Positions 6,189 through 63,587 of a stretch of DNA of 64,000 nt are shown in pieces (the stretch's first letter is position 1; each line of letters starts with the position of its first letter). Where the stretch lies: positions 3,857 through 67,856 of the forward strand of contig JBDRML010000001.1 of assembly GCA_043812195.1 (NCBI GenBank), read 5' to 3'. The position numbers and the translations under genes are program-made. Source of the stretch: Candidatus Woesearchaeota archaeon (lineage in GTDB: Archaea > Nanobdellota > Nanobdellia > SCGC-AAA011-G17 > PNOQ01). The notes beneath the pieces are model-generated. The model had not been told where the DNA came from. It saw only the letters and a list, made by a program, of their open reading frames with translations, and did no database searches.

Positions 6189-6244
6189 CAAGCTTGCCAA
6201 ACACCGACGGAAAGTATTTAAATTAATAAATCAATTAAGTTAAA

Positions 6245-6939: not shown

Positions 6940-7051
6940 ATTAATTATTTTATTTTTTTATTTCTTTTAACATAAGAAAGAACTCTAACAATTATTTTTA
7001 TTTATTCAATTTAACAAAAATAATATATACTAGACCTTATTATATTAAACA

Positions 7052-8146: not shown

Positions 8147-8176
8147 ATAATAGGGAATCTTACAAAATTTATAAAA

Positions 8177-8884: not shown

Positions 8885-8961
8885 AAAATAACTATTCTTT
8901 CTAATCTTTAAATATCTTTCTATACAAAAACTATATAAAATAGAAAATCAAAATTTCTGCC

Positions 8962-9783: not shown

Positions 9784-9823
9784 CAAAAGGCTTTTAAACT
9801 AATTCTTTTCAATTTTTAAGTAT

Positions 9824-9898
9824 GGGCCCATAGCTCAGTTTGGCTAGAGCACTTGGCTCTTAACCAAGGGGTCGCGGGTTCAAATCCCGTTGGGCCCA
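9824..9898 (+). tRNA. tRNA-Lys (anticodon CUU)
   Basis: cloverleaf read by hand: acceptor GGGCCCA/TGGGCCC, D-arm GCTC..GAGC, anticodon stem CTTGG/CCAAG with loop CUCUUAA, T-arm GCGGG-TTCAAAT-CCCGT; no encoded CCA. Confidence 0.85.
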
Positions 9899-9947
9899 TT
9901 CACAATCTTAAGTTAATTTTATATATACTTCAATCATTATTATTTCT

Positions 9948-10673: not shown

Positions 10674-10674
10674 G

Positions 10675-33300: not shown

Positions 33301-33576
33301 GTTCTTTTTTCAACTAAATGTAATAGGGGCGTAGATTTTCCAGGTGAAATTTGTAATAGTATTATATTCACAAAATATCCATATCCTAATGTAAGTTCTT
33401 TATTTTGGCAAATATTAAAGAAAAGTAAGCCTGAATATTATAGTATGTTCTATAAAGATAAAGCTGAAAGAGAATTCTTGCAGAGAGTTTACAGGGGTCT
33501 TAGGTCAGAAAAAGATCATATAAACATTTTAAGCCCGGATATTAGGATTTTGAATTCCATTGGGTTGGTTAAGTGA
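30391..33576 (+). CDS. XPD/Rad3 (DinG)-like Fe-S SF2 DNA helicase, intein-containing
   Basis: Walker A GICGTGK|...|S is interrupted by an intein; 4-Cys cluster (HRC, SNC, IPC, PAC); DEAH-like IIDECDEF; C-terminal RGVDFPG helicase motif. Confidence 0.7.
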   Translation: MMDWSLFNKKEYLEPLVFSNGKSQLDVVKEVIQAIKEGHKIIFIKGICGTGKCLERDSSVFCKPNNENHFSYHKISELVGKGGDILALDRMGKITESKFKNVRNTGIKKLYKIKTRTGREIVASANHPLLTITKEGIEWLPLEKLNNYSYICLPNKISFGRELDYDNDKIKILAHLIAEGKLGDKAGSPIYFQSPSKNPEIRKDYISSLRRAFPDGEIKSYCEKDVAIVFRNMNTTKGATNKLRLFIREHGLDKKKSSQKFIPKIIFNLKKEKISLFLSRLFSCDGSIYQKKKDGQITIEYSSISKRLIQDVSLLLQRFGIQHTITSKKFKENKEYAWIICISNHNSLRKYIDEIGFVGRKQRLALKLYNKLKIHKFTNIDKVPRVIREYLKKKGYNYTELDRFLNYEKIEESRKKKSFKQIRKDKSIETPFVFNQQKIDFLRSHIKKINNYIKDDTLSFICNEDIFWDKVKSIEYIKKDETYDLEVPKNHNFIANGIIVHNSAIALNIAKEIGKTSIVVPVKPLQKQYEEDYTDKMYVLKKDGKKLKIAIIDGRNNHRCIFKSNCMADDRYIPCTIEIKEDNLNLLKEYLHQNKFVNTKGFKKLKDIRRKSIAPACPYWSPILHKDMFEQDYSIEDAEEINYQGLQNKTFTYFQREKGCKYYNQFLNYLNSDVIVFNSKKYELENLMDRKPATEIEIIDECDEFLDNLANEKKINLDRLSLVLSNVKTKDFDLKEITIEINDLVLELLNDKKISEKEIFPIKKTKIYPLLKHFTSNAGLIDLEEEETDYLYNVYQTGKSFEDYFDETYVTFYRNDRNELLVNIITVDLEKKLKEFLDKNKAFVMMSGTIHSEMILKEVFGIKDFKIIEAEVNPIGKIKKIRTKLEKCFDYQTLKQNGAREAYLDALSRAVEVAEKPVLVHVNAFKDLPSKEECLRFNISNLKTKEELMIEQNEYRRGELVKKFKDKEIEVLFSTKCNRGVDFPGEICNSIIFTKYPYPNVSSLFWQILKKSKPEYYSMFYKDKAEREFLQRVYRGLRSEKDHINILSPDIRILNSIGLVK
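30547..31896 (+). other. intein (450 aa) with LAGLIDADG homing-endonuclease domain, inserted in the helicase P-loop
   Basis: starts with Cys after GTGK, ends ...IIVHN followed by Ser; LAGLIDADG blocks ILAHLIAEGKLGD and LFLSRLFSCDGSIY. Confidence 0.8.
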
Positions 33577-35522: not shown

Positions 35523-36881
35523 ATGATGAAAGAAGACAAACCAAAAAAGTTCGGCCTTAAATCGCCATTAAATGCTCAGTTTGAACTTACTTTTGCATGC
35601 CCCAGCCTATGTTCACATTGCTATAATTATTGGAGATATTTAGAAGAAAAAGAAATGGTCAAAATTGAAAAAGAACTTGGCCCACACCATTTTTTAAGTA
35701 TTGCAGATAAGATAGCAGAAGCAGAAATTTTTTCTATAACGCTTACTGGGGGAGAACCTTTATTAAGAAGAGATATTCTTTATGGTGTAATAGAAAGATT
35801 AAATTCTAAAAATGTTGAAACCAACATTAATTCAAATTTAATGTTAATTACGGATGAAGATTTGGCTAGAATGGAAAGCTTACAAGTAGGGGGGTTTCTC
35901 ACTTCATTCCACACATATGATGAAGAAAAATTTGATAAAATTTCTAATTTAAATGGAGCATTTAGAAAAACAATTAGAGGGATAAGTTTGGTAAGGAGAA
36001 ATAAAAGAAATCCAAGCACGAATATGGTTGTTTCTCAAATAAATAAGGGAGATGTGTACCAAACTGGAAAATTTTTATATAGCAACTTTGGAATAAAACG
36101 TTTTAGTGCTACACCTATTAATCCCTGTACAAATGCAAAAGCTCATCTTGATATGAGATTAAGCAAAGAAGAAACCATAGAAACACTAGAGGATTTAGTA
36201 AGGTTAGAGCAAGATTTAGGAATCTCTACCGAAGTTCTTGAACCAATTCCTTATTGTTTAATTTATGATAATCCAAGCTTTGAGAAGTTTATGAAAAAAA
36301 CTTGTACAGCAGGCAAATCAACAATTGCAATAGACCCCACAGCAAATGTTAGAGCATGCATACATCTAACAAAAAATTATGGTTCTTTATTAGAAGAAAG
36401 TTTAGAAGATATCTGGGGTAGAATGGCAGAGTGGAGGCAAAGTGGATATTACCCTGATGAATGCAAATCTTGTTCTGTAATAGATAAGTGCAAAGGAGCC
36501 TGTAGATCTGAAGCAGAATCTGTTTATGGAGACATAACCTCCAGACCACCCCTGATGACATCTCCTCTAGATACAAAATTAGAATCGACACACCAAAATA
36601 CAGAAATTTCACTAAAAGGATTTGATAATAGTTATTTAACTACTAATAATGTAAGATATAGGAAAGAACATGGGGGGTATATATTATTTTCACCATCAAA
36701 AAAGTATTTATTTTTAAACCAAGGAGAATTTGAAGCATTAACAGAATTAACTGAAAAACAAACATTTAAATTATCTGATCTATTACCAAATACAGATCAA
36801 AACGACCACAAAATCACCAATTTTTTAAAAAAGATGGTTGGAGCAAATATTATTGTTCCTAAGGAGGAAAAAATAAAATGA
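35523..36881 (+). CDS. radical SAM/SPASM-domain peptide-maturase-like enzyme
   Basis: CPSLCSHC (CxxxCxxC) near the N-terminus; C-terminal Cys-rich SPASM-like region (CKSCSVIDKCKGAC). Confidence 0.8.
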   Translation: MMKEDKPKKFGLKSPLNAQFELTFACPSLCSHCYNYWRYLEEKEMVKIEKELGPHHFLSIADKIAEAEIFSITLTGGEPLLRRDILYGVIERLNSKNVETNINSNLMLITDEDLARMESLQVGGFLTSFHTYDEEKFDKISNLNGAFRKTIRGISLVRRNKRNPSTNMVVSQINKGDVYQTGKFLYSNFGIKRFSATPINPCTNAKAHLDMRLSKEETIETLEDLVRLEQDLGISTEVLEPIPYCLIYDNPSFEKFMKKTCTAGKSTIAIDPTANVRACIHLTKNYGSLLEESLEDIWGRMAEWRQSGYYPDECKSCSVIDKCKGACRSEAESVYGDITSRPPLMTSPLDTKLESTHQNTEISLKGFDNSYLTTNNVRYRKEHGGYILFSPSKKYLFLNQGEFEALTELTEKQTFKLSDLLPNTDQNDHKITNFLKKMVGANIIVPKEEKIK

Positions 36882-39743: not shown

Positions 39744-41045
39744 ATGAAGATGAATAAAAAAGAAATTTCAGAACTTATAAAAACAGGAGAAGGATATACT
39801 CTTGAATTCAAAGAAAGTTTAAGTAGTTCTATTGGAAAGACAATATGCGCTTTTGCAAATTCTTCAGGAGGAAAAATTATTTTAGGAGTTACAGATAATG
39901 GGGTTGTTAGGAGTTATAATCTAAATAACGCTGACCGTTCAAAAATTGAAAATATTGTAAGGAATATGGATCCTTCATTTCGAGTAAATATAGAACAGGT
40001 TTCAGATTTAGTTGTGATTTATGTTCCTGAAGGTAAAGAGAAACCTTACGCCATAAACGGGCATTTTTATTTAAGGCAAGGAGCAAATTCACAACAATTA
40101 AGGCGGGATGAAATTAGATCATTATTCCAGAGAGAGAATTTAATTAGATTTGATCGTAAAGCCAATCAAGAATTTGATATGAAAGAAGATTTTGATAAGA
40201 AAAAATTCAAATCATTCATTACCAAAACTGGGATTGACAGTTCTTTGCCTAAACAACATATCTTAAAGAATTTAGGTTTAATTACTGAAAATAAGCTTAA
40301 TAATACAGGAGTTTTATTTTTTTCACATCGCATTTCTAAGTTTTTCTTAAATTCTGTCATCACCTGTGTGTTATATAGCGGGAGAACAAAAACAAAGATT
40401 TTGGATAAAAAAGAATTTGATGCAGATTTTGTTTCTAACTTCAATAATGCCGTCATTTTTGCATTAAAAACACTTAAAACAGAATATGTTATTGAAAAAG
40501 TTGAAAGGGAAGAAAAACATGAAATCCCTGAAAAAGTTTTGCGTGAATTAATAATCAATGCAATGATTCACAGAAATTATTTTTCAGAAGGCCGTATTTT
40601 AATTGAGATTTATGCAGATAGAATTGAAATTACTAATCCAGGAGAGCTATTATTTAAGAAAAGTGATTTGGGGAAAAGAAGCCTTGCCAGAAATCCTCTT
40701 TTAGTTGATTTAGTTCACAGGCTGCAATTTGTGGAAAAAATAGGCTCAGGTATTAAAAGAGTCAAAGAATTAATGGGGAGTAAAATTAAATTTGATATAG
40801 ATTCTGACTGGTTTGGAGTGATTATTAAGAGAAATGACACTGTAAATGACACTGTAAATGACACTGTAAAAATCATTTTATCTGAATTAAGAATTAATCC
40901 TAATATTACTTATGATGAACTAGGAAAGAAAATTGGTAAAAGCAGGAGCACAATTATTCGTCATATTGACAAACTAAAAGAAAAGGGTATTGTAAAGAGA
41001 ATTGGCTCAGATAAAGGAGGACATTGGGAAGTGGTTGGAAAATGA
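39744..41045 (+). CDS. AlbA_2 (Schlafen-like) + HATPase_c_4 + wHTH putative regulator (COG2865-like)
   Basis: N-terminal LEFKESL...ICAFANSSGGKIILGV (AlbA_2); mid NAMIHRNY; C-terminal HTH; contains a 9-bp x3 tandem repeat. Confidence 0.65.
   Translation: MKMNKKEISELIKTGEGYTLEFKESLSSSIGKTICAFANSSGGKIILGVTDNGVVRSYNLNNADRSKIENIVRNMDPSFRVNIEQVSDLVVIYVPEGKEKPYAINGHFYLRQGANSQQLRRDEIRSLFQRENLIRFDRKANQEFDMKEDFDKKKFKSFITKTGIDSSLPKQHILKNLGLITENKLNNTGVLFFSHRISKFFLNSVITCVLYSGRTKTKILDKKEFDADFVSNFNNAVIFALKTLKTEYVIEKVEREEKHEIPEKVLRELIINAMIHRNYFSEGRILIEIYADRIEITNPGELLFKKSDLGKRSLARNPLLVDLVHRLQFVEKIGSGIKRVKELMGSKIKFDIDSDWFGVIIKRNDTVNDTVNDTVKIILSELRINPNITYDELGKKIGKSRSTIIRHIDKLKEKGIVKRIGSDKGGHWEVVGK
40833..40868 (+). 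repeat. tandem 9-bp repeat AATGACACTGTA x3 (encodes NDTV x3)
   Basis: read directly from the sequence. Confidence 0.8.
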
Positions 41046-42762: not shown

Positions 42763-44025
42763 ATGAAAATACTAAAAAGCCCTATTTCAGTTCACTATGA
42801 ATTAACTGAAAATTGCAATCATCGTTGCGAACATTGTTATAATCCCTTTGCGCATATTTCTGAAGAAGTTCCAAAATTAACAAGAGATAGAATAATAGAA
42901 GAATTAGTACAAAATGAAGTATTTCATGTTATCCTTACTGGAGGAGAACCATTATTTTATCAAGATATGGCTGTAGATGCTGTAAAAAGATTAAATAAAA
43001 ATGGAGCTGTTGTTTCTTTAAATTCAAATTTAACTTTAATGGATAGAAATACTGCAGTCTCACTTAAAAAAGCAGGTCTAAAAAGTGCCCTAACTAGCAT
43101 AACTCACTATGATCCAAATATTCATGATAAAATTACTAAAATAGATGGAAGTTTAGAAAGATGTATTTCTGGAATTAATTATCTTGTAAATCAAGAAATA
43201 CCTGTCTCAGTAAATATGGTCGTAACAAAAGACAGAGTTGACGATGTTTACAAAACAGGAGAAATGTTAGTAGATTTAGGTATTACAGGTTTTTCAGCAA
43301 CAAGAATGGCGCCAAACAGAGATAATCTAAAAGAAATTTTAGATGCTCAAGAAGTAAAACATATGTTAGATCAATTATTATTATTAAAAGAAAAATACGG
43401 CATTAATGTTTCAAGCTTAAACAATCTTCCAAGATGTTTTAGTTCTGACAAAAAATATGGGATATTTATGAATAGATCTTGTAATGGTGGAAGAACAAGT
43501 GCAACAATAACTCAGATAGGTGGATTAAAATCTTGTCATCATTTAGATGAAGTTGTTGGAAATATAATAGAGGAAGGATTATCAACAGTTTGGGAAAAGG
43601 CTCCAGTATTAAAAGATGAAAGATTGCCAAAAGGATGTTTAGCATGTGATGTAAATGAAAACTGTGCAGGAGGCTGTAGACAAACTGCAGAAGTTGTTAG
43701 AAACAAAAAAACAGGCCTAGATCCAATTGCAAGAGGAAAAGAACAAATAATAACCTTAGATCCACCAGAACTGCCAAATAAAGATAGCACATTAAGATTT
43801 ATGAAAGATACATTATATAGAAAAGAAAAAAATGGAGGGGTTTTATTTAGAAATCCAAGAAATTATGCAATATTAAATGAATCACAATATCAGTTAGCTT
43901 TAAAACTGTCAAACAACTCTTTTTCAATAAATGAATTGAAAGATTTATTTGGAAATGAATTAAGTTCCTTTATGGAAAGATTATACCAAAAAGGTTTAAT
44001 AGGGGAGGCAAAATGGAAAAATTAG
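42763..44025 (+). CDS. radical SAM/SPASM-domain peptide-maturase-like enzyme (paralog of 35523..36881)
   Basis: CNHRCEHC (CxxxCxxC); C-terminal CLACDVNENCAGGC SPASM-like. Confidence 0.8.
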   Translation: MKILKSPISVHYELTENCNHRCEHCYNPFAHISEEVPKLTRDRIIEELVQNEVFHVILTGGEPLFYQDMAVDAVKRLNKNGAVVSLNSNLTLMDRNTAVSLKKAGLKSALTSITHYDPNIHDKITKIDGSLERCISGINYLVNQEIPVSVNMVVTKDRVDDVYKTGEMLVDLGITGFSATRMAPNRDNLKEILDAQEVKHMLDQLLLLKEKYGINVSSLNNLPRCFSSDKKYGIFMNRSCNGGRTSATITQIGGLKSCHHLDEVVGNIIEEGLSTVWEKAPVLKDERLPKGCLACDVNENCAGGCRQTAEVVRNKKTGLDPIARGKEQIITLDPPELPNKDSTLRFMKDTLYRKEKNGGVLFRNPRNYAILNESQYQLALKLSNNSFSINELKDLFGNELSSFMERLYQKGLIGEAKWKN

Positions 44026-50150: not shown

Positions 50151-50289
50151 GGTTATTGGGATATATAAGTTATTTATAAGCTTTTCTATCCTTTTATAGA
50201 TATTTCTTATATTTTATAGAAAGATATATAAACTTTATTAATTTCTTAAAAAAGAAAGCTTTTTAAGTAAAAATAAAGGCTTCAAAATC

Positions 50290-50892
50290 ATGAATAAAAA
50301 AGTACTAATCGCAACACTGTATTCACCAGAACCAGTGTTATTAGCTGCCAATAGGCTTGGCCCAGATAGATTAATACTATTAATAGATAAAAAATCTAAT
50401 AAACACCAAGAAGATTCTCTAAAAGTGATTAATAACTCTCTGGGTAGAATTATAGATGTTAAACCAATTAAAGTTGATGTTTATGACATTGTAGGGGTTG
50501 CTAAAAAGGTTGTAGAAGTCATAGATATGCAGCCTAGAGATGATAGATTATTTGTAAATGTAACCTCTGGTAGAAAAACACAAGCTCTTGGTTTGTTATT
50601 TGGAGCTTATGCTAGACATGATAGAATTAATAAAATAGCTTATAATCCTGAAGAAGATAAGAATTCTGTTGTTTATTTGCCTAGATTGTCTTTTAAGTTA
50701 AATGAGAGCCAAAAAAAGATATTAGATGTAGTTTCAGAAGTTCCAGGTGGTAATTATGCTGAATTAGCTGAAAAGGCCGGTGTTTCAAAAGCAATGTTTT
50801 ATAGGGCTACAGATGAGTTAAAAGACATGGATCTTGTATTAAATGAAGATGGTTTAAAATTAACAGATGCAGGAGAGATAGCGAGGTTGTAG
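50290..50892 (+). CDS. Rossmann-like (CARF/Csa3-like?) + C-terminal wHTH regulator
   Basis: N-terminal KVLIATLYSPEPVLLAANRLGPDRLILLI; C-terminal wHTH ILDVVSEVPGGNYAELAEKAGVSKAMFYRATDELKDMDLV. Confidence 0.4.
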   Translation: MNKKVLIATLYSPEPVLLAANRLGPDRLILLIDKKSNKHQEDSLKVINNSLGRIIDVKPIKVDVYDIVGVAKKVVEVIDMQPRDDRLFVNVTSGRKTQALGLLFGAYARHDRINKIAYNPEEDKNSVVYLPRLSFKLNESQKKILDVVSEVPGGNYAELAEKAGVSKAMFYRATDELKDMDLVLNEDGLKLTDAGEIARL

Positions 50893-50908
50893 GGGGGCTA
50901 AATTAAAA

Positions 50909-53773
50909 TTGACAAACGAAAGATTGACAAAATCACAAAGTACTGCAGTAAAATATTTTGCAAATCCTTTGGTAATTGTTGCTGGACCAGGATCTGGAAA
51001 GACAAAGGTCCTAATAAATAAAGTAAAATATCTTATTGAAAGTAAAAAAATGGAGCCTTCAAAAATAGTATTAACAACATTTACAATAAAAGCAGCAGAA
51101 GAATTAAGAAAAAAGATACAAAATTTGATAAAAACAGAAGATATTAGTTCAATGTTTATTGGGACTATTCATTCATATTGTGACAATATTATTAAACAAT
51201 ATGGCGGAACAAAAAATATTCCATTAGATTATTCAGTTCTTGATGATATTCAAAGATATATTTTTTTAAGAAAACATTTCAAAGTGCTTGGGTTGGATAA
51301 AGAAGAATTAAAATTATTAAAAAAACCTAGAAGTGATGGAGAACAAATTGGAGATGTTCTTAGATTTTATGATGAATTAACGGAGAATTTAGCAGATATT
51401 CCCGAATTATTAGAATATATCAAAGAAAATAAATCTGAGCTATTTGAGAACACCGAAGAAAAATATGATTCTGCAATCAATTTAATAAATTCCTATGAGA
51501 AATATGTTGAATTATTAAAAAAATATAAATTGATCGATTTTGCATTTCTTGAAAAAACAACTTATAATTTATTAAATGACAAAGCTATTTTAGAAAGTAT
51601 TAGAATTAAAACTGAATATGTTTTAATAGATGAGTTTCAAGATATTAATCCCCTTCAATGGAAATTATTTTCCAAAATTGTTGAAAAAGATAAAAAGATT
51701 ACCGTGGTGGGAGATAAAAACCAAAGTATTTATGGGTTTAGGGGGGCAAATCCTAATATTTTTGATAAGTTCAAAGTTGAATTTAAGGAAGCAAAACAAA
51801 TCGAACTCGATGTAAATTTTAGATCAAAGAAAAATATAATTGATTTTGGTAATGATTTTCTTTCTGGAAGAGAAACAATTAAGATAAAGGCAGATAGGGA
51901 GAATGAAAAAACAAGAATATATATGATTGATGGAGATTATGAATCTGATTCTGCAGAAAGAATATTAGAATTAATAAAAAATTTATACAAAGAGAAAAAA
52001 ATAAAAAAATATGGTGATGTAGCACTATTATTTAGAAGTGTAAAGAATCATGGTAAGAAATTTATTGAACTATTAGATAAAAAATTTCCAGGAATACCTT
52101 ACTCTGTCAGCGGCGGAACAAATTTTTTAGAAAATGAAGAAATACGTTCAACAATATTTTTTATGTCTTATCTTTATGGTATCGAGGATGAAAAAATATC
52201 TAAGACTTTAATAAGTTATGATAATTTTATTGATGCTCTCGATACAGAATTATTTAAAATATCTAAGAATACTATAAAAATATTAAAAGAAAATCCAAAT
52301 TTAGACACAAAAAATATTGCTAATGTAAATATATTAACAAAAAAAGGCATTAGTGAAAAAGATGCAATAAAAATAATTTCAATACATAAATTAAAAAATA
52401 AAAATGCTAGTAAAAAATTATCTATTGAGGAGACTTTTTACAAGTTTTTAAGTGAAACAGAATGTATAGTAGATTACAAGAAAAAAATTTCTGCAATGAC
52501 TAAAAAAATGATGTTCAATCTTGGTTATTTTTCACAATTAATACAAGACTATTCAACATATTATAAAAAAAGTAATTTCAAGGGATTTTTATATGTATTA
52601 AAAGATTTGCCGGAAAATTTGAAACTAGAAGGAGAAAATGATTCATTCATAGCAGACAATCCAGAAAATTTAAAATTAATGACTATTCATCAAGCAAAAG
52701 GACTTGAATTTCCAGTGGTTATAATCCCTTCTTTAGTTACGAGAAGATTTCCAAATAAGATGTTAACTAGAAATTTAATAGATCTTCCAGAAAAATTTAA
52801 TTTATATGAACCTTATGATAGATTAAAAGAAGAAGAAAATTTGTTTTATGTTGCAGCCACAAGAGCCCAGGATAGTTTAATTCTATCAAAATTTAAAAAC
52901 CATAGAACTACGAGGGTTAGTGCATCAGAATTTGTTGATAGAATTGAAAAAAATCTAGTCGAAATAAAAAAATTAGAAGATTATTCGGAAAAAATAAAAG
53001 AAAGAAAAATAGAAGACGAGGGATTTCATGTAATAGATTATAGCTCAATTAGCACATTTATAGACTGCCCAGAGCGTTTCAATTTGAGATATATTTATGG
53101 GTTTGTTGCTGGAGAAATTTATGTCCAAAAAATTGGAAAGATCTATCATAATGCTCTTGCAAAATTAAATTCTAATATTAAAGAGAAGAAGAAAATAGAT
53201 GATAAATTAATAAAAGAGATTTTAGATGATTCTTGGATAACTTTGAAGAAAGATGAACGTCAAGATGAGATTATGAAGAAAAAATTTCTTAGAGAAATAA
53301 AAAGATATTATCAAACAATGACTAATAATGAGTTAAAAAAAATAAAAGAAATAGAAAAACCTATTGGTTTAAATGTTGATAATATTCGCATACGTGGTAG
53401 GTTGGATCTACTTTATGAAAATGAAAATGGAGAAAATGTTTTGATGGACTTTAAATCAAGAAAATTAGATGCGATCGGTGAAACGCATGTTGATAAACAA
53501 TTAATAACATATGCAATGGCTTTGGAAAAGGAAGGTTGGAATATAAATAAATTAATTGCATATCCTATTCAAGAAAATAATTTTAAACCAGTAGAGGGAG
53601 AAATAAGTTTTGGCAATGACGATAAGAAAAAAATCAAATCATCTGTAAAAAAGTTTGTTGGTGCAGTAAAAAACGAAACATTTAATACTTCAGAAGTAAA
53701 ATCAGGATTCTGTGAAAAATGTCCCTATAAATTGATCTGTTTATATAATAAATCAAGGAGTCTAAATGATTGA
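50909..53773 (+). CDS. UvrD-family SF1 helicase fused to a Cas4/RecB-like Fe-S PD-(D/E)xK nuclease
   Basis: GPGSGKT, DEFQD, VGDKNQSIYGFRGA, TIHQAKGLEFP, ATRAQ; C-terminal DCPERF...LDLLY...MDFKSRK...QLITYAMAL and CEKCPYKLIC (Cys cluster). Confidence 0.8.
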   Translation: MTNERLTKSQSTAVKYFANPLVIVAGPGSGKTKVLINKVKYLIESKKMEPSKIVLTTFTIKAAEELRKKIQNLIKTEDISSMFIGTIHSYCDNIIKQYGGTKNIPLDYSVLDDIQRYIFLRKHFKVLGLDKEELKLLKKPRSDGEQIGDVLRFYDELTENLADIPELLEYIKENKSELFENTEEKYDSAINLINSYEKYVELLKKYKLIDFAFLEKTTYNLLNDKAILESIRIKTEYVLIDEFQDINPLQWKLFSKIVEKDKKITVVGDKNQSIYGFRGANPNIFDKFKVEFKEAKQIELDVNFRSKKNIIDFGNDFLSGRETIKIKADRENEKTRIYMIDGDYESDSAERILELIKNLYKEKKIKKYGDVALLFRSVKNHGKKFIELLDKKFPGIPYSVSGGTNFLENEEIRSTIFFMSYLYGIEDEKISKTLISYDNFIDALDTELFKISKNTIKILKENPNLDTKNIANVNILTKKGISEKDAIKIISIHKLKNKNASKKLSIEETFYKFLSETECIVDYKKKISAMTKKMMFNLGYFSQLIQDYSTYYKKSNFKGFLYVLKDLPENLKLEGENDSFIADNPENLKLMTIHQAKGLEFPVVIIPSLVTRRFPNKMLTRNLIDLPEKFNLYEPYDRLKEEENLFYVAATRAQDSLILSKFKNHRTTRVSASEFVDRIEKNLVEIKKLEDYSEKIKERKIEDEGFHVIDYSSISTFIDCPERFNLRYIYGFVAGEIYVQKIGKIYHNALAKLNSNIKEKKKIDDKLIKEILDDSWITLKKDERQDEIMKKKFLREIKRYYQTMTNNELKKIKEIEKPIGLNVDNIRIRGRLDLLYENENGENVLMDFKSRKLDAIGETHVDKQLITYAMALEKEGWNINKLIAYPIQENNFKPVEGEISFGNDDKKKIKSSVKKFVGAVKNETFNTSEVKSGFCEKCPYKLICLYNKSRSLND

Positions 53774-56675
53774 CAAAGAAAAATTAAAAAAATTTAAAGA
53801 ACAACTTAGAAAAATGTTTAGAAGTGATGAACCAGATTTCAACTGGGGGGTTTATAGGATAATAAAACAAAAGAATCAAGATGTTGATGATTTTATTGAA
53901 AATGAGATTCCAAATATAATCAAAGATAATTTAAAAGTTTTATATGCAAAAAGTGTTGAAAGTTTAGAAAAAGAACTTGATGAGATTAAATCAGATTGTC
54001 AAAAATTGGGTGTTGATTATGAAACAAATGAGAGGCATAAAGAAAAATTAAAAGAAAAGAAAGAATTAACAGAAATTGGAGATATTGAATCCCAAATTTA
54101 TAATGATTTATTGGAATTTTTTTCTAGGTATTTTATAGATGGGGATTTTATTTCTAAATTCTATTACAAAAATGACCAATACATGGTTCCTTACGATGGT
54201 TCTGAAACTTATTTGCACTGGGCAACAAAAGATCAGTATTATATAAAAACCTCTGATGTTTATAATAGATTAAGTATCAATGCAGGAAAATTTAATATAA
54301 TATTTAGGGTTGTTCAAGCAGATCAAGAAAAAGGCAATGTTAAAGCTAAAGGTGATAAATTTTTTGTTTTAGATAAAAATGCTTTTGAACTTAATAAAGA
54401 TACAAATGAGTTTTTTGTTAATTTAAATAATATTGTTGGTGATGATGAAATAAAAGAAAAAGGTAAAAATAAATCTGAAATACAGGAAAAATTAAACGAA
54501 GAAATACTTAATGAATTAAAAAATGAACTAGAAAAGAATAATATCAAATGTAATGAAGATTTTGAAAAGGTTTTGAAAACTTTCCAAAAAAGATATACTA
54601 AAGATTTTTTCATACATAAAAATTTGAAAGAATTTTTAAGTGGTGAGCTAAAAACTTATGTAAAAAATGAGATTTTTGATCTTGATAAAGTTATAGATAT
54701 AGAGATAAAGATAAATAAAGAGTTGATAGTTCAATCTCAAACTTTGAAAAAGATTGCAGATAAAATAATTGAAAGACTTGCATCTATTGAAGATCTTAAA
54801 AGGAAAGTTTGGGAAAAGAAAAAGTTTATTTTTGATACGGGATACTGCATGACTTTAGATTATATAAATAAAAAATATTATAAAGATGTTTTAAAGAATA
54901 AAAAACAAATAGCCGAATGGGTCTCTTTAGGTTTTATAAAAGAAAGCATGTTAAATGAGAAATATTTAGAAGAAAATCCCACTTTAGTTATTGATACTGC
55001 TTTTTTTGATATTGACTTCAAATACAAAATATTATCTGAAATTGATGATTTGGATGAAAAAATTAATGGTATTTTAATTAATTCGGAAAATTTCCAGGCA
55101 TTGAATCTGTTATTAAATAAATACAAAGAGAAAATTAAGTGTTGTTATATAGATCCGCCATATAATACTGGAAATGATGGGTTCTTGTATAAAGATGGAT
55201 TTAATCACAGCAGTTGGCTAAGTTTAATGAATGATAGATTAATATTAACGAAAGAATTATTGAATAATAATGGGGTTTTTTTTAGTAGTATTAATGATAT
55301 TGAGTTAAAAAATTTAAATAAAATAGCAGACTCCATATTTGGAAATGAAAATTTCATCGTAAATTTAGTCTGGGAGAATAAAGAAGGGGGAGGTAGTTCT
55401 GATAGTAGATTTTTCAGAATCAAGCACGAATATGTTACTTCTTATTCAAAAAATACAAATACATTAAAACTTGATGGAGATATTAAAGAAGAAGACGAAG
55501 CTTATAATTATAATGATAGGTTTGTAAAAGAAAGAGGCAAATATAAATTAATAAAATTAAATAGCTTCAGTATAAGATCTTCACCTAGCCTACAATATGA
55601 AATTGAACTTCCCAATGGTGAAAAAATTACTCCTCATGAAGGCGGAAAAAAAGGTTGTTGGAGATGGAATGAAGATCAATTTAAGTGGGGTTTAAAGAAC
55701 GAATTTATTGAATTCAAAAAAAATGCTGAAGGAAAACTTTGGGTTTATACAAAACAATACTTTAAAGTGGATCATAAGGGAAATGAGATAATTAGAAGTG
55801 TTCCATATAGGGCGGTTATATCTAAGTTTTCTAGTACCCAAGCAACAAAACAATTAGAAAAATTATTTGGAGATAAACCATTTGCATACTCAAAACCAAC
55901 CGATTACATTAAGTTTTTATTAAACTTAAGCATAAATCAGAAATTAAATGATAATTTTTTAGACTTTTTCGCTGGTTCAGGAACTACAGGTCATGCAGTA
56001 TTAAAACTAAATAAAGAAGATAGAGGAAATAGAAAATTTATTCTCGTAGAAATGGGGCAATATTTCGATACTGTTCTTAAACCCAGAATATTAAAGGTAA
56101 TTTTCTCTGATAATTGGAAAGAGGGAAAACCATTAGACAATAAGGGATCTGAAAAACAAATTATAAAATATCAAACACTAGAACAATATGAAGATTCATT
56201 AGAAAACATACAATTCAAACAAACAGATTTAAGGGGATTGGATAAAGTGGACAAGGAAACACTATTTAAATATGATTTCAATGAAGTACCAAAAAAAAGT
56301 AAAACTTTTCTTGGAGCAGATATAGAAAAAAATTGGAGAGATTTTAGTATTTTAACACTAGATAAAAACTTAAAAGCAAATCCAATAAAAGTTGACCTAA
56401 TTGAAACTTTTAATTACTTAATAGGGATGTGGATTGATAAATATCAAATAAAGGAAGACAAACAAAGAGAATATATTGTAATAAAAGGTAAGATAAAGGA
56501 TAAACCTTCCATAATCATTTGGAGGGACAACAAAAATTTGATTCCAGAAAAAGATAAAAAATTCATAGAAGAAGAAATAATTGAAGGTGAGAAAGTTGAA
56601 AATATCTTTGTAAATTCAGATTGTATGATAAAAGGAGCAAAACATATTTTTAATGAGATGAGAAAAAGATTATAA
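53766..56675 (+). CDS. Type III restriction-modification Mod subunit (beta-class N6-adenine methyltransferase) with ~430 aa N-terminal extension
   Basis: motif IV CYIDPPYN precedes motif I DFFAGSGTTGHA (beta-class order); overlaps the upstream gene by 8 nt. Confidence 0.8.
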   Translation: MIDKEKLKKFKEQLRKMFRSDEPDFNWGVYRIIKQKNQDVDDFIENEIPNIIKDNLKVLYAKSVESLEKELDEIKSDCQKLGVDYETNERHKEKLKEKKELTEIGDIESQIYNDLLEFFSRYFIDGDFISKFYYKNDQYMVPYDGSETYLHWATKDQYYIKTSDVYNRLSINAGKFNIIFRVVQADQEKGNVKAKGDKFFVLDKNAFELNKDTNEFFVNLNNIVGDDEIKEKGKNKSEIQEKLNEEILNELKNELEKNNIKCNEDFEKVLKTFQKRYTKDFFIHKNLKEFLSGELKTYVKNEIFDLDKVIDIEIKINKELIVQSQTLKKIADKIIERLASIEDLKRKVWEKKKFIFDTGYCMTLDYINKKYYKDVLKNKKQIAEWVSLGFIKESMLNEKYLEENPTLVIDTAFFDIDFKYKILSEIDDLDEKINGILINSENFQALNLLLNKYKEKIKCCYIDPPYNTGNDGFLYKDGFNHSSWLSLMNDRLILTKELLNNNGVFFSSINDIELKNLNKIADSIFGNENFIVNLVWENKEGGGSSDSRFFRIKHEYVTSYSKNTNTLKLDGDIKEEDEAYNYNDRFVKERGKYKLIKLNSFSIRSSPSLQYEIELPNGEKITPHEGGKKGCWRWNEDQFKWGLKNEFIEFKKNAEGKLWVYTKQYFKVDHKGNEIIRSVPYRAVISKFSSTQATKQLEKLFGDKPFAYSKPTDYIKFLLNLSINQKLNDNFLDFFAGSGTTGHAVLKLNKEDRGNRKFILVEMGQYFDTVLKPRILKVIFSDNWKEGKPLDNKGSEKQIIKYQTLEQYEDSLENIQFKQTDLRGLDKVDKETLFKYDFNEVPKKSKTFLGADIEKNWRDFSILTLDKNLKANPIKVDLIETFNYLIGMWIDKYQIKEDKQREYIVIKGKIKDKPSIIIWRDNKNLIPEKDKKFIEEEIIEGEKVENIFVNSDCMIKGAKHIFNEMRKRL

Positions 56676-56676
56676 A

Positions 56677-59600
56677 ATGGAAAAAAAATATAGTGAAGAC
56701 CTAAGTAATTTGTTATCAACTTCAAGAATACTTTCAAAATTATTGGGTTTTGATGATCAACATCAAATACTGAAAAAATTTAATGATGCTAATTTAACAT
56801 ATGATTTTTTAGAAGGAAAAAGTAATTTAATAGATTTATTAATAGGATATAAAAAAACAAAAGAAATTGATTTAGATATCATAACAGAATCAATGTTGTT
56901 AATGTTTGATGAAAATATAAGAAAACATTTAGATCACATAAATAAGTATAGAGAAGATAAAATAGAACCAAGAAACTTTCAATATCTTGCTTTATTGTTT
57001 TCTGAAATTTTTTTGTATTTTAAATTTAATGAAAATGATTTTTTAGAGATTTTAAATGAGTATGTAGACTTACTAAATAAAAATAGCATTGAAAAATTTG
57101 ATTATTATAAAAAAGAAGATTTAAATAAAATTTGTTTTTGGATGGCGACAGGATCTGGAAAAACAATAATCATGCACATTAACTTCTTACAATACTTACA
57201 TTACAATCCAAAAATAAATAAAATAATTTTAATAACTCCCAATGAAGACATGTCTAAACAACATAAAGATGAATGTGATGAAGATAATATAAACTCTTCA
57301 ATAATTGACAGTTCAAATTTAAGATATTCGTCACTCAAAAACTCCATAAATATTTTTGATATAAATAAAATTAAAGATAAATCCGAAAAAATAACAAAAA
57401 ACAAAGGGAAGACAATAGATTACAAATCATTTGGAAAAAATAATTTAATTCTTGTTGATGAAGGGCATAGAGGTTCAAAGGGAGATAAGTGGATGAAATT
57501 AAGAAAAGGAATTTCAGAAGAAGGTTTTACCTTTGAATATAGTGCAACATATAATGATTTCCTTGATGAAAAAAATAAAAATAACACAGATGATTACAAA
57601 AGAACAATTATTTTTGATTTTTCATATAAGTATTTTTATCATGAAGGCTACGGCAAAGATTATGATATTTCATATGTAACTGAGAAAGATAAATATACCA
57701 ATAAGATGAGAGAATATATAATGTTGGGGAATCTATTAAGTTTTTATGAACAAAAAAAATACTTTAAAGAATATAACAAAGAATTAGAAGATTTCAATAT
57801 TGAAGATCCATTATGGTTGTTGGTTGGTTCAAGAGTAAAAGAAGATAATAAGTTAGATGGCACAACAAAATCAGATATTGCAAAATTTGTATATTTTTTA
57901 AATGAACTAACGAACGAAGGATTAGACGAAAAAATAGAAAAAATATTGACTCAAAAAACCGGAGTAAAAAAGAAAAATACCAACAAAGATATTTTTACAA
58001 ACAGATATAATTACTTGAGAGAACTATTAAAAAATAGATTCAATGAAAACTATTCTAAATTGATTGATGATATTTTTAAAGTTGTTTTCTATGCAACACC
58101 AAATTCTGATCTAATTTTAACAGATATAAAAAATGGAGAGGGGGAATTAGCATTGAGTTACTCAAGTGGAAAAAAACCATTTGGTTTAATTTATGTTGGC
58201 AAGGGAAGTGAAAAGGACTTGATTAAAAAAATTAGTGAGAATCATAAAAATATAAGAAAAGAAAGTGATAAAATTGGTAATTCTTTATTTCCTAGTCTAA
58301 AAGAAACAAAGGAAGAAATCTATCCACTTAATTTATTAATTGGTGCAAAAAAATTTATAGAAGGGTGGAATAATTTTAGAGTTTCTTCAATATTACTCCT
58401 TAACTTTGCAAAGGGTGCGGGTGCATCAGCAATTCAATTATTTGGAAGAGGAATAAGATTGAGGGGATATGATCGTAGTTTAAAAAGATCTGGTTTTAAT
58501 AATATTGAAGCACCAAAGAATATTAAAATAATAGAGACACTAAACATTTATGGGATTGAAGCTCACTATATGCAAAAATTTCTAGATGATATTGGAACAG
58601 ATTTAGAAATTACTAGCACAATTGAAAAAGACATACAAGTAATCCCAGATAAATACGGATTAAAAAAAGAATTCGGAAAAGAGTTGTACTACATAGATAA
58701 CCCCACAGAAAAAGAAGTAGAGTTGACAAATAGATTAACAATATGTGGTTTGAAAAAGATGCAAATAACTTTAGATACGTATAATTATGGTATGTCTTCA
58801 AAATCTAAAGGAATTAGCAAAGAAGAAGCAAAAGAAAAAAAACAAACAGTTTCTAAACAAACATACTATAATAACTTTAAAGATTTTATAGATTGGAATG
58901 AAATATACTCAAATGTATTAGAATACAAAAGAAATGTCGGTTCTAGACAAACAACAAATAATTATTATTCGAATTTCTATATTGATGGAATAGATGATTT
59001 GAAAAATGTATTTGAGAATAAAGATATAGCGATAACTGTATACGGGGAAGAAAAGGAATTTTATATGGATAATAAATCTATAAAAGAATTGTATGAAATG
59101 AGAGAGAAAATCCAGAACATATATACTGACATAATTAAAAAATTGATAAAGTTAACTCATACTGCAAAAATAAGAGGTAAAACAGAAGCAGCATATAAAT
59201 TGACTAAATTAGAAGATAAACACATGATTGATGATTATAAATTAATAATTGAACTAAAAGAAAATAAAGTGTTGGCGGAAGATCTTGGTTTAAAAAATAT
59301 TTTCGATAAATTCATTGAAAAAGAAAGAATATTAGATTTAGAGGATGATGAATTAAATGACTTTGTAGAAAAAGAACAAGATAAAAAAGAGTTTATATTA
59401 AAATTTAATAAACATTTATATTTTCCTCTTTTAGTTTCTCATGAAAAAGAAAAATATTCTTTGTCTCCAAAAGGTTTGATTTCTTCCGAAGAATCTTTTG
59501 TAAGAAAACTAAAAAAATACATTGAAACTAATGAGAAATCGATAAAAAATAAAAAAGTGATGTTGTTGAGAAATCATGAAAATAAAGGCATAGGATTTTA

Positions 59601-59934
59601 TATGAAAACAAAAAAATTCTATTATGACTTTATTTTATGGGTGATTGATGAAAATGAAAAACAAAAAATATCATTTATAGATCCAAAGGGATTAGTTCAT
59701 GGGGATGAAGAAAAAGAAGAATTCAACAAAAATGAAATAAAAAAAATAGAAGAAAAAATCAAAGAAAAAGAAAATAAGGATTTTGAATTGCTTACATATA
59801 TTATAACTCCAACGTCAAAAGAGGATATAGCTAGTGCCATGATAAGAGAAGATCCGATTGGCTCAAATGTTTATTTAGAAGAAGATATTTACGATTTATT
59901 TAATAAACTGTTTGAGATTAATCAAGAAGATTAG
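56677..59934 (+). CDS. Type III restriction Res-like subunit (SF2 helicase + C-terminal PD-(D/E)xK)
   Basis: MATGSGKT, LVDEGHRG, QLFGRGIRL; C-terminal ...VIDENEKQKISFIDPKG; start is 2 nt after the Mod stop. Confidence 0.7.
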   Translation: MEKKYSEDLSNLLSTSRILSKLLGFDDQHQILKKFNDANLTYDFLEGKSNLIDLLIGYKKTKEIDLDIITESMLLMFDENIRKHLDHINKYREDKIEPRNFQYLALLFSEIFLYFKFNENDFLEILNEYVDLLNKNSIEKFDYYKKEDLNKICFWMATGSGKTIIMHINFLQYLHYNPKINKIILITPNEDMSKQHKDECDEDNINSSIIDSSNLRYSSLKNSINIFDINKIKDKSEKITKNKGKTIDYKSFGKNNLILVDEGHRGSKGDKWMKLRKGISEEGFTFEYSATYNDFLDEKNKNNTDDYKRTIIFDFSYKYFYHEGYGKDYDISYVTEKDKYTNKMREYIMLGNLLSFYEQKKYFKEYNKELEDFNIEDPLWLLVGSRVKEDNKLDGTTKSDIAKFVYFLNELTNEGLDEKIEKILTQKTGVKKKNTNKDIFTNRYNYLRELLKNRFNENYSKLIDDIFKVVFYATPNSDLILTDIKNGEGELALSYSSGKKPFGLIYVGKGSEKDLIKKISENHKNIRKESDKIGNSLFPSLKETKEEIYPLNLLIGAKKFIEGWNNFRVSSILLLNFAKGAGASAIQLFGRGIRLRGYDRSLKRSGFNNIEAPKNIKIIETLNIYGIEAHYMQKFLDDIGTDLEITSTIEKDIQVIPDKYGLKKEFGKELYYIDNPTEKEVELTNRLTICGLKKMQITLDTYNYGMSSKSKGISKEEAKEKKQTVSKQTYYNNFKDFIDWNEIYSNVLEYKRNVGSRQTTNNYYSNFYIDGIDDLKNVFENKDIAITVYGEEKEFYMDNKSIKELYEMREKIQNIYTDIIKKLIKLTHTAKIRGKTEAAYKLTKLEDKHMIDDYKLIIELKENKVLAEDLGLKNIFDKFIEKERILDLEDDELNDFVEKEQDKKEFILKFNKHLYFPLLVSHEKEKYSLSPKGLISSEESFVRKLKKYIETNEKSIKNKKVMLLRNHENKGIGFYMKTKKFYYDFILWVIDENEKQKISFIDPKGLVHGDEEKEEFNKNEIKKIEEKIKEKENKDFELLTYIITPTSKEDIASAMIREDPIGSNVYLEEDIYDLFNKLFEINQED

Positions 59935-60625
59935 CTTCTCTAAAACTATAATAATTCCTTTTATGCTGATCGCCAATAATAATATGGTCACTTAATTTTA
60001 TGTCAAATAATTCACCTATTTTTTTCAAACGATTTGTAATTCTTCTATCATCCGTAGAAGGTTTAGAATCTCCAGAAGGATGATTATGAACTAATATTAT
60101 AGAATTAGCACTTTCTTTTATTGCTTCTTTAAAAACTTCTCTAGGATGCACCAAACTACTGTCTAAAGTGCCTATAGAAATAACTTTTTCTTTAATAACC
60201 TTGTTTTTAGTATCTAAATATAAACATAATAAATATTCTTTTTTCTTACTTCCATACTTATCTATAAAATAATCATAAACATCCTTAGCACTTCTAATAT
60301 ATCTTTTATAACCTTTATTTTTTAATCTATTATGCCTTTTACTTAGCTCTATCAGACTCTGCAATTTCATAACCTTCATAAAATCTGGATGATCTGCCCT
60401 CTTGCCTTTACAAATAAAATTGACCAACTCTCTGTACCCAAGATGCTCAATCTCATCTAACTTATATTTTTTTAAAATTCTATTGCTGATCTCTAAAGAA
60501 TTATCTTCTTTTGTATTATCCCAAAATAAGATAGATAATAACTCCACATCATCTAAACTTTCAACGCCATTTTTTGTCAGTTTAAACTTAGGAAGGTTAT
60601 ACCAGGGAATATCACTATTTTTCAT
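59918..60625 (-). CDS. radC: RadC-family JAB-domain protein
   Basis: ELLSILF... plus JAMM motif HNHPSGDSKPSTDD. Confidence 0.8.
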   Translation of the reverse strand: MKNSDIPWYNLPKFKLTKNGVESLDDVELLSILFWDNTKEDNSLEISNRILKKYKLDEIEHLGYRELVNFICKGKRADHPDFMKVMKLQSLIELSKRHNRLKNKGYKRYIRSAKDVYDYFIDKYGSKKKEYLLCLYLDTKNKVIKEKVISIGTLDSSLVHPREVFKEAIKESANSIILVHNHPSGDSKPSTDDRRITNRLKKIGELFDIKLSDHIIIGDQHKRNYYSFREANLLD

Positions 60626-62560: not shown

Positions 62561-63016
62561 CTAAATATTTTGAATTTGTTTTTCAAATCCATATTTTAAA
62601 ATCACTCCTTGTAAATTAGATTTGGTAATACTAACACCCCACTCAGGTTCACTCTTTTTTCCATTATAGTCATTCCCAACTAGGAAAGAAGAAGGTTTAT
62701 TCTCCCAATCTAAAGATGGTACGAGGAGCGATATTGGTTCCTTCCCATTCTCAAATAAAACTAATGCAAGCAATAGATTTTTACTAAGATGAAAATGTTT
62801 CTTTTTCATAAATGTATAATTATAATTTCTTACAGATTTAACTTGGATATCAAAATACTCATCTTTATTTTCCCTTACAATAAAATCTATACCTTTATCA
62901 TCTATTTCTGAAGAATAAACATCAAAACCAAGCTTTGTAAACTCCATTTTAGCAAAATATTCTCCAAATCTCCTTAATTGTAAGTGGTTTAAATCAGACC
63001 ATTTATTATTTGGCAT
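62561..63016 (-). CDS. PD-(D/E)xK-like nuclease-fold protein
   Basis: GIDFIV ... FDIQVKS motif spacing; weak. Confidence 0.35.
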   Translation of the reverse strand: MPNNKWSDLNHLQLRRFGEYFAKMEFTKLGFDVYSSEIDDKGIDFIVRENKDEYFDIQVKSVRNYNYTFMKKKHFHLSKNLLLALVLFENGKEPISLLVPSLDWENKPSSFLVGNDYNGKKSEPEWGVSITKSNLQGVILKYGFEKQIQNI

Positions 63017-63055: not shown

Positions 63056-63090
63056 TCAAAAGAGAGCGCGAGAAACCTCTCGCTTACTAA
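63056..63090 (-). repeat. palindromic cassette-boundary repeat, copy 19 (inverted orientation)
   Basis: reverse complement reads GTTAGTAAGCGAGAGGTTTCTCGCGCTCTCTTTTGA; abuts the truncated radC copy. Confidence 0.85.
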
Positions 63091-63587
63091 CAACAATCTC
63101 TAGGATGTACTAAACTACTATTCAAAGTCCCCACACTAACAACTTCTTCTTTAATAATTCTATTTTTAGTATCTAAACACAAACAAATAAAATACTCTTT
63201 CTTCTTATTTCCATATCTATCTCTTAATAACAAATAAACATCTTTAGCACTTCTAATAACTCTTTTATACCCATTATTTTTAGTTTTATTATATCTTTTA
63301 CTTAACTCAATCAAACTTAATAATTTCATAAGTTTCACATAATCTTTAGTTTCAACTTTATTTCTTTTATTTTTAATAAAATCTAAAATTTCCCTATTTC
63401 CCAATTCATCTATTTCATTTAAATTATAATTTTTAAGCAGTCTATTGCTTAATTCTAAAGCAGATTCACCTTTTTCCCCAATTCCAAAGATAATAGACAA
63501 TAATTCCGCACTATCTAAAGATTCAGCCCCATTTTTAAGAATTTTTGAACTAGGTCTGTTATAATTTGGAAGATCAAAGATTTTCAT
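63087..63587 (-). pseudogene. truncated second copy of radC (lacks the JAMM catalytic region)
   Basis: N-terminal 160 aa is paralogous to 59918..60625, including ~65 bp of shared 5' flank (ttcataaga(g/t)tttagaaacctaaaccagtttatataaatttatgagaagaaatagcaactaaa); the ORF ends exactly at the repeat. Confidence 0.6.

Follow-up and report, generated by a model that had tools for sequence, protein, structure and literature searches.

Fusions of a UvrD-like superfamily 1 (SF1) helicase with a Cas4-like nuclease, termed UvrD-Cas4, were reported to be monophyletic, with Type III Mod and Res genes as their commonest neighbourhood and Dcm/Vsr genes as the second (Hudaiberdiev 2017, BMC Evol Biol 17:232, PMC5704561, pfam12705 section, Fig. 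6). The same section describes Cas4-like genes beside restriction-modification (R-M) genes in DPANN archaea and predicts an ancillary unwinding or cleavage role in defence; for UvrD-Cas4 it proposes a role like that of the RecB/AddB nuclease domains in recombination. The present analysis concerns such a fusion, here called the helicase-nuclease, which is encoded together with Mod and Res within positions 50290-59934 of a stretch of 64,000 nucleotides (nt) from a Candidatus Woesearchaeota archaeon (contig JBDRML010000001.1). This whole stretch is called the window. The locus is very probably a Type III-like R-M cassette of a long Mod/long Res subfamily with the helicase-nuclease as an accessory enzyme.

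In the 2017 description, as in the window, an SF1 UvrD-like helicase joined to a pfam12705 nuclease lies beside Type III Mod and Res. The protein analysed here has the attributes of the fusion, namely a complete SF1 UvrD-like helicase, a C-terminal Cas4-like nuclease, a Cys cluster and Type III Mod/Res neighbours. A sequence-only reading of this DNA had considered it possibly a distinct defence system or a hybrid of restriction and end processing, but the layout has been known from comparative genomics since 2017 and the present cassette is a further example. The pfam12705 section is computational only and gives the fusion one paragraph and one figure (PMC5704561). It names WYL, HTH and Schlafen-HTH regulators, not a CARF-wHTH regulator as found here, and it does not set apart the long Mod/Res subfamily or an archaeal bias. 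The term UvrD-Cas4 was found in no other paper of the literature searched. No experimental study of the three-gene system was found in that literature either, and a 2026 survey of archaeal immunity and a 2023 survey of archaeal R-M systems are silent on it.

In the Type III systems Eco86II and BspHIV, whose Mods form N4-methylcytosine (m4C), a third gene for a helicase-like ATPase lies 5' of mod, an arrangement present in more than 500 genomes (Murray 2021, PLoS One 16:e0253267, PMC8259958). Its product is superfamily 2 (SF2)-like and has no PD-ExK or other nuclease motif. The position immediately 5' of mod is the same as here, whereas the protein in the window is an SF1A helicase of the UvrD/PcrA type with a Cas4-type nuclease. 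Moreover, the Mod in the window carries a DPPY motif and is predicted to make N6-methyladenine (m6A) rather than m4C. With EcoP15I and EcoPI (Mod2Res) the cassette shares a beta-class Mod with a target recognition domain (TRD) between motifs IV and I, the order mod then res and the lack of an S subunit. The plan of Res, an SF2 ATPase followed by a C-terminal PD-(D/E)xK domain, is also shared.

Results

Organization of the locus

Four open reading frames (ORFs) on the same strand fill 50290-59934 and encode a CARF-winged helix-turn-helix (wHTH) regulator, the helicase-nuclease, Mod and Res. The genes and their domains, with lengths in amino acids (aa), are as follows.

50290-50892, plus strand: CARF-wHTH regulator gene (200 aa)
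50909-53773, plus strand: helicase-nuclease gene (954 aa, TTG start)
50909-52978, plus strand: UvrD/PcrA-type SF1A helicase core, residues ~1-690 (Pfam UvrD-helicase 2.7e-67, UvrD_C 1.7e-40)
53021-53773, plus strand: Cas4/RecB-family PD-(D/E)xK nuclease domain with a 4-Cys cluster of the iron-sulphur (Fe-S) type, residues ~705-954 (Pfam PDDEXK_1 5e-23 at 711-944, Cas_Cas4 3.5e-07)
53766-56675, plus strand: Mod gene (969 aa)
53766-55085, plus strand: family-specific N-terminal module of long Mod, residues 1-440 (conserved FFSRYYxxGDFIS and PYxGxExxLxWxxxDQYYxK)
55086-56675, plus strand: beta-class amino-methyltransferase core and conserved C-terminal domain (DPPY, variable TRD, FxGxG)
56677-59934, plus strand: Res gene (1085 aa)
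56677-58596, plus strand: N-terminal helical domain and SF2 ATPase/translocase core of Res (Walker A ATGSGKT, motif II DEGH)
59389-59934, plus strand: C-terminal PD-(D/E)xK-type endonuclease domain of Res (E938 ... D984-FILW ... D1002-P-K1004-G)

The start of the helicase-nuclease lies 16 nt behind the stop of the CARF-wHTH gene, and its TTG codon at 50909 is preceded by a Shine-Dalgarno-like GGGGGG run. The last 8 nt of the helicase-nuclease gene are shared with Mod, and 1 nt separates the stop of Mod from the ATG of Res. The three genes are probably co-translated. The sequence-only reading had given the ORF coordinates and the 8-nt overlap correctly; it was also right about the close spacing of Mod and Res, although its figure of 2 nt for this junction was trivially too large. 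Its domain assignments held against Pfam, PADLOC and NCBIfam profiles, and the motifs that it quoted were all present, DCPERF and CEKCPYKLIC in the nuclease and DPPY before FxGxG in Mod. Entries in NCBI with 100% identity are named 'ATP-dependent DNA helicase', 'site-specific DNA-methyltransferase' and 'DEAD/DEAH box helicase family protein' for the helicase-nuclease, Mod and Res, respectively. Mod and Res are encoded on one strand with no HsdS-like gene nearby, and this pairing recurs in more than 100 related loci.

Conservation of the three-gene cassette

The order helicase-nuclease, Mod, Res, on one strand and with abutting or overlapping ends, was found in nine distinct archaeal cassettes with protein identities of 23-62%. 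Loci with this arrangement were L001, L002, L003-L006, L166/167 (Methanofastidiosum), L012 (Methanoculleus), L170 (M. mazei), L171 (M. maripaludis) and L172 (Micrarchaeota). Downstream of each of the four close homologues of the helicase-nuclease that were examined (P0002, P0007, P0009 and P0011; 42-52% identity), a long Mod and then a long Res are encoded on the same strand. Methanoculleus frigidifontis (L012) has the same cassette. A search starting from Mod homologues recovered it, with overlapping junctions, from Methanosarcina mazei (CP187260.1), Methanococcus maripaludis (JACDUL010000002.1) and a metagenome-assembled genome of Micrarchaeota. Separation of the helicase-nuclease from the R-M genes in most relatives had been named beforehand as the result that would make the synteny coincidental; instead, every close relative examined had kept the synteny.

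Pairwise identities of the three proteins co-varied across the nine cassettes (Spearman coefficient 0.65, p=2e-5, for helicase-nuclease against Res, and 0.57, p<=3e-4, for helicase-nuclease against Mod), and the same three clades were obtained with each protein. This parallel divergence indicates that the linkage is real. The cassette is a genuine conserved three-gene unit, and its synteny is judged to be functional.

A related layout was found in a second family of Type III systems. There, distant UvrD-PDDEXK homologues (about 25% identity) are encoded immediately 5' of Mods of canonical size (~600-650 aa), and the Res proteins that come next have RE_endonuc or TnsA-like endonuclease domains. 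This clade surfaced in a metagenome scan with the helicase-nuclease alignment, in which generic UvrD motifs dominated the matches and close relatives were not sampled. One canonical-type Res in this group (L102, 5827-8937; ResIII and TnsA-like endonuclease) carries a C-terminal Peptidase_S24 domain of the LexA/UmuD type (residues 907-1017, E 2.8e-09), an unusual fusion for a restriction subunit.

Some cassettes have further peculiarities. In L001, the closest to the cassette of the window (52% identity of the helicase-nuclease), Mod and Res are each split into two ORFs (5296-8366 and 8367-11624), by either frameshifts or assembly errors, or because the copy is decaying. In L002 alone, a second, divergent UvrD-PDDEXK/Dna2-like protein of 904 aa is encoded just upstream of the cassette helicase-nuclease, as is a 170-aa ORF without a Pfam match (both within 6721-9960); the tandem of helicase-nucleases recalls AddAB/AdnAB pairs. 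Tyrosine integrases adjoin the cassettes of M. mazei, M. maripaludis and Micrarchaeota. A Gabija-like pair of OLD-TOPRIM and UvrD genes lies beside the M. mazei cassette, and GmrSD and a 1440-aa AAA_11/12-DUF559 helicase lie beside that of Methanofastidiosum. These surroundings suggest that the archaeal cassettes reside in mobile defence islands. The integrase and defence genes are located as follows.

L170: 1458-2315, 16298-19069
L171: 3779-4801
L172: 629-1513
L166: 394-4716, 14744-16513

The helicase-nuclease

In an alignment of 24 homologues the helicase Walker A motif GPGSGKT and DEFQD were invariant, as were C720, H747, D833, D847, K849, Q864, Y868, C935 and C938 of the nuclease domain; C944 was conserved in at least 90%. 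Among solved structures, the profile of these homologues matched PcrA (1pjr, 1.4e-120) and UvrD (2is1, 1.5e-108) best. Matches to AddA (1.9e-65), AdnB (2.7e-58), RecB (2.4e-40) and GajB (~2e-32) were weaker.

Like AddAB, RecBCD and AdnAB, the protein combines an SF1A motor with a RecB-family nuclease, and its putative Fe-S cluster is as in AddB or Cas4. It differs from them in being a single polypeptide with no AddB-, RecC- or RecD-like partner adjacent in the window and with a motor nearer to PcrA/UvrD. It scored far below the NCBIfam cutoffs for an AddA or RecB equivalog (addA_Gpos 136.3 against 707.65, recB 118.8 against 696.05). Assignment as a bona fide Cas4 was likewise rejected, as TIGR00372 gave 45.2 bits against a cutoff of 65 and the window holds no cas genes or array.

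PADLOC has no dedicated model for the protein. Its top PADLOC matches were GajB models, with values down to 8.3e-67, and are explained by the shared UvrD core; GajB is only about 500 aa long and has no nuclease domain. Gabija was excluded, since no GajA gene (OLD-type ATPase-TOPRIM, AAA_15/TOPRIM) flanks the operon. BREX and DISARM had also been considered, and a check with PADLOC found none of their partners (PglZ/BrxC or DrmA/B/C); the three genes matched no PADLOC models other than MTase_III/MTase_II, REase_III and GajB/RTasHel. The operon of the window has a single helicase-nuclease gene. A tblastn search of plasmids with the helicase-nuclease gave only generic PcrA/UvrD matches, none of them full-length.

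Mod

In Mod the motif IDPPYNTG (462-468) precedes FFAGSGTTG (735-743). The protein matched Pfam N6_N4_Mtase (2.4e-33, residues 457-766) and the PADLOC model MTase_III (2.2e-147). Its profile matched the solved Type III Mods 6k0w (5.5e-75), Mbo45V (7dsu, 1.6e-59) and EcoP15I Mod (4zcf_A, 5.4e-57), and 6k0w, 4zcf_A and 7dsu were again at the top when the AlphaFold model, with a predicted local distance difference test score (pLDDT) of 74.6, was searched with Foldseek. On these profile and fold matches the core of Mod (approximately residues 441-800) is classed as a bona fide relative of Type III Mods. From the DPPY motif the product is predicted to be m6A.

The N-terminal 440 aa gave no Pfam match at E<=5 and no match to a sequence in the Protein Data Bank at E<=10. 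In the AlphaFold2 model this module consists of a helical and a beta-rich subdomain, with pLDDT mostly between 50 and 85; the Foldseek search of the whole chain was dominated by the methyltransferase core. The module was found in 1,836 representative clusters (50% identity), and among the best 150 matches it was always the N-terminus of proteins of ~950-1100 aa or of their fragments. The roughly 430 extra N-terminal residues noted earlier are thus correctly described, but they are a property of the whole family and no peculiarity of this gene. The extension was also rejected as a hallmark of helicase-linked systems, as it is equally present in pairs without the helicase-nuclease.

Res

Res matched Pfam ResIII (3.4e-16) and the PADLOC model REase_III (2.3e-102), and ATGSGKT and DEGH are invariant among its homologues. 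The C-terminal domain on its own had no Pfam match. When this region was aligned with the endonuclease regions of canonical Type III Res proteins (YYPDF...IEVKG), hhalign gave a probability of 81.5% and an E-value of 1.1e-05. The nuclease motif is conserved throughout the family, with YYDF in the window and YPDF in most homologues. The nuclease is assigned at the level of motif and profile. Cassettes with a helicase-nuclease also keep the PD...(D/E)xK motif in Res, which indicates that the accessory nuclease supplements that of Res and does not replace it.

Two-gene relatives and their accessory genes

Long Mod with the 440-aa N-terminal module and long Res form a large, mostly bacterial two-gene family; a scan based on Res with one genome per species gave more than 556 relatives. 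Among the 73 genome loci kept that encode both proteins, a full helicase-nuclease gene was directly upstream only in the archaeal loci L006 and L012. The bacterial exceptions were L021, with the full gene downstream of Res and behind an inserted GmrSD gene, L072, with a helicase-only gene, and L046, with an unlinked helicase. One of 34 viral-contig loci with both long Mod and Res had a helicase-nuclease (L188). Nearly all archaeal cassettes have the helicase-nuclease, whereas it is rarely found in bacterial members of this Mod/Res family; the contrast is based on few archaeal loci, selected in part for their close relationship.

In bacterial relatives of the long Mod/Res pair, the space between the two genes often holds genes for OLD-type AAA_15+TOPRIM proteins, GmrSD, paired Fic/DOC proteins, GNAT-containing proteins or HTH+IrrE/M78 proteins. 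Accessory defence genes thus seem to dock at the long Mod/Res locus. The inserted genes are located as follows.

L050: 8045-9961
L021: 3153-5018
L036: 7384-9877
L048: 6893-9620
L038: 8077-9294
L054: 7265-9439
L076: 8121-9296

The upstream regulator

The gene upstream of the helicase-nuclease, read earlier as a Rossmann-wHTH protein possibly of the Csa3/CARF kind, is classed by its profile matches as a Csa3-type CARF-wHTH regulator. It scored 72.9 bits with TIGR01884 (Csa3; cutoff 60.2), matched the PADLOC model CARF3 (PDLC01849) over its full length at 4.7e-66 and gave Pfam matches to HFX_2341_N (6.8e-11), CARF_Card1 (4.3e-06) and HTH_24. It is preceded by a region that is presumed to contain the promoter or operator.

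50151-50289, no strand assigned: AT-rich divergent intergenic region

This region contains an imperfect 15-nt inverted repeat (50193-50207/50218-50232) whose arms are 87% complementary, a match that may be due to chance in DNA of 28% G+C.

In all the cassettes fetched, a CARF-wHTH homologue was found near the cassette only in L002, 5 kb away and on the opposite strand. The gene was therefore rejected as a core component. Of the four genes whose joint conservation the sequence-only reading had proposed to check, only the helicase-nuclease, Mod and Res are conserved together, and the CARF-wHTH protein is a local regulator, incidental to the cassette. No CRISPR array or repeat family was found in the 64-kb window, and no cas genes were present among those of its ORFs that were scanned.

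Genomic surroundings

The G+C content of the window is 24-33% per 2 kb. The surroundings look chromosomal, with genes for topoisomerase I, seryl-tRNA synthetase and an intein-bearing Rad3/XPD-type helicase. The latter is a 1061-aa ORF (30391-33576) with a Helicase_C_2 (Rad3/XPD-type) C-terminus, split by an intein that carries a LAGLIDADG homing endonuclease (Intein_splicing 1.6e-26, LAGLIDADG_3 2.8e-17). Genes for a CAAX protease, YdjM, RadC-like and DUF4190 proteins flank the operon. A RadC-like JAB gene (59918-60625) is convergent with Res and shares 17 nt with the 3' end of that gene, and a second, shorter RadC-like gene (62561-63016) and a gene for a DUF4365 protein (63087-63587) follow 2-3 kb beyond. 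None of the RadC-like and DUF4365 neighbours is conserved beside the cassette elsewhere.

About 10 kb upstream a protein with Schlafen AlbA_2, HATPase_c_4 and wHTH domains is encoded (39744-41045); Schlafen-like ATPase-HTH regulators are listed for some UvrD-Cas4/Type III loci in the pfam12705 section (Hudaiberdiev 2017, PMC5704561). The left end of the window (1-9900) may be an integrated element beside a tRNA-Lys gene (9823-9899). Translations from this region, inspected by eye, suggest a JAB/MPN-like protein (1024-1548), followed by a C-terminus like that of tyrosine recombinases (5562-6188), an HNH-like protein (6245-6607) and a P-loop ATPase (7052-7747). Three radical-SAM genes within 22 kb (22635-24101, 35523-36881 and 42763-44025) are unrelated to the cassette and carry one extra domain each, B12-binding, SPASM and Fer4_12 (a single 4Fe-4S cluster).

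Discussion

The conserved order, the parallel divergence and the intact catalytic motifs of all three proteins can be accommodated by a division of labour in which Mod marks, Res cuts and the helicase-nuclease degrades. Taken as a whole, this mechanism is judged to have even chances. With its variable TRD, Mod would recognize a short asymmetric site and methylate the host DNA, probably at adenine. On unmethylated foreign DNA, Mod-Res would use the SF2 ATPase of Res for long-range communication, by translocation or diffusion, and the C-terminal PD-(D/E)xK domain would then cut both strands. The helicase-nuclease, possibly in physical contact with the other two proteins, would act last; it may enter at the ends, move 3'-5' like PcrA/UvrD and degrade the unwound strand with its Cas4/RecB-type nuclease. 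Shredding of this kind would turn a few repairable cuts into irreversible destruction of the invader. RecBCD and AddAB degrade restricted DNA in bacteria and were used here as the functional model; archaea are not known to have these enzymes. The model fits the retention of a nuclease motif in Res itself and the distribution of the accessory gene, which is almost always part of archaeal cassettes and seldom of bacterial ones. A mechanism that joins restriction with end processing is plausible.

Several points weigh against this mechanism, besides the small and partly selected archaeal sample. According to the UvrD-Cas4 paragraph of the 2017 study, most bacteria with this fusion also have RecB (Hudaiberdiev 2017, PMC5704561), so a plain role as substitute for RecBCD cannot be general. 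Two UvrD-Cas4 relatives with 30-35% identity, P0021 and P0046, are stand-alone, and in a neighbour-joining tree of 61 family members both kinds of R-M-linked proteins interleave with stand-alone ones; the protein can therefore work without an R-M partner. The SF2 core of Res is not nearer to EcoP15I Res than to other SF2 ATPases, so that mechanics in the style of Type III enzymes are assumed from the architecture. Finally, the third protein of the m4C Type III systems is dispensable for methylation and for cleavage in vitro and does not co-purify (Murray 2021, PMC8259958).

The overlaps of stops and starts point to coupled translation and a matched stoichiometry, and together with the co-divergence of the three proteins and the near-constancy of the helicase-nuclease in archaeal cassettes they also favour an obligate third restriction subunit. 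Such a subunit would bind Mod/Res, perhaps via the N-terminal module of Mod, and be needed for target search, unwinding or cutting, which would make the cassette a distinct three-component subtype. We consider this unlikely, as the same Mod/Res family forms a two-gene unit that lacks the helicase-nuclease at about 70 loci of bacterial genomes and at 33 on viral contigs. These two-gene loci have the N-terminal module of Mod as well, so that it is not specific to partners of the helicase-nuclease. Furthermore, Res retains its own nuclease motif, the gene in L021 is downstream of Res behind the inserted GmrSD, and the analogous third helicase of Eco86II can be omitted in vitro (Murray 2021, PMC8259958). 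Similarly doubtful is a wider form of the division of labour, in which archaeal long-type Type III systems and UvrD-Cas4 make up one 'cut-and-shred' machine with the helicase-nuclease as a dedicated co-evolving partner, possibly a subunit, and with expression gated in this locus by the CARF sensor.

A role of the helicase-nuclease in protecting the host, either by resecting accidental self-cuts for recombinational repair or by aiding restriction alleviation, is less probable still. The architecture matches that of the end-resection enzymes AddA, RecB and AdnB, and stand-alone relatives occur in non-defence contexts; a recombination role like that of RecB/AddB is the one proposed in the pfam12705 section (Hudaiberdiev 2017, PMC5704561). 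Nevertheless, neither a Chi-recognition partner (AddB/RecC-like) nor a recombinase is linked in the window, the scores with the AddA and RecB models are far under the cutoffs, and the cassettes lie in defence islands or beside integrases.

A slightly lower probability is given to an independent or back-up defence module that has docked at the R-M locus, as the OLD, GmrSD, Fic and IrrE-like inserts have, and that might act when restriction is inhibited. PrrC in Type I loci is a comparable docked defence gene. Unlike the variable inserts that the long Mod/Res locus takes up, however, the helicase-nuclease gene is constant in position, strand and overlap and has diverged in parallel with Mod and Res, and the same 5' position recurs with an unrelated canonical Type III family. 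These features stand against docking, even though GajB-like helicases act in Gabija, GajB is the top PADLOC match (8.3e-67), and the family is also listed in Dcm/Vsr contexts in the pfam12705 section (Hudaiberdiev 2017, PMC5704561).

It is very improbable that the helicase-nuclease makes CRISPR prespacers from restriction fragments in the manner of Cas4 and under the control of the Csa3-like regulator. Its nuclease domain is of the Cas4 family, a Csa3-type regulator lies directly upstream, and Csa3a reportedly activates adaptation genes in Sulfolobus. However, neither a CRISPR array nor cas genes were found in the window, conservation of the cassette does not extend to the CARF gene, and TIGR00372 is below its cutoff; DPANN archaea are, as far as the UvrD-Cas4 source and the 2026 survey of archaeal immunity describe them, mostly without CRISPR-Cas (Hudaiberdiev 2017, PMC5704561). 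Coincidental clustering in an island is effectively refuted: defence genes do cluster and stand-alone homologues exist, but the same order with overlapping junctions occurs in at least nine archaeal cassettes with proteins 23-62% identical, and the layout is seen again in a second family of Type III systems and was reported independently in the pfam12705 section (Hudaiberdiev 2017, PMC5704561).

With the Mod extension being family-wide and the CARF gene incidental, the remaining interest is in the accessory enzyme of a Type III R-M system, now placed in tractable methanogens. R-M systems are usually deemed complete with Mod and Res, and here a third enzyme is conserved across archaeal phyla. 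If it provides the destructive step, this would explain lethal restriction in organisms without RecBCD/AddAB, and a defined accessory class would be added to Type III systems, beside the unexplained third helicase of the m4C systems. If the 'cut-and-shred' reading were true, the cassettes would represent a three-component R-M subtype supplying the RecBCD-like destruction that archaea otherwise lack. Gating by the CARF protein, if true, would mean that a signal of the cyclic-oligoadenylate type controls R-M in a lineage usually without CRISPR-Cas. As the same cassette is present in the cultured and genetically tractable M. maripaludis (JACDUL010000002.1) and M. mazei (CP187260.1), its role is directly testable, and the cassette is relevant to transformation barriers in these two organisms.

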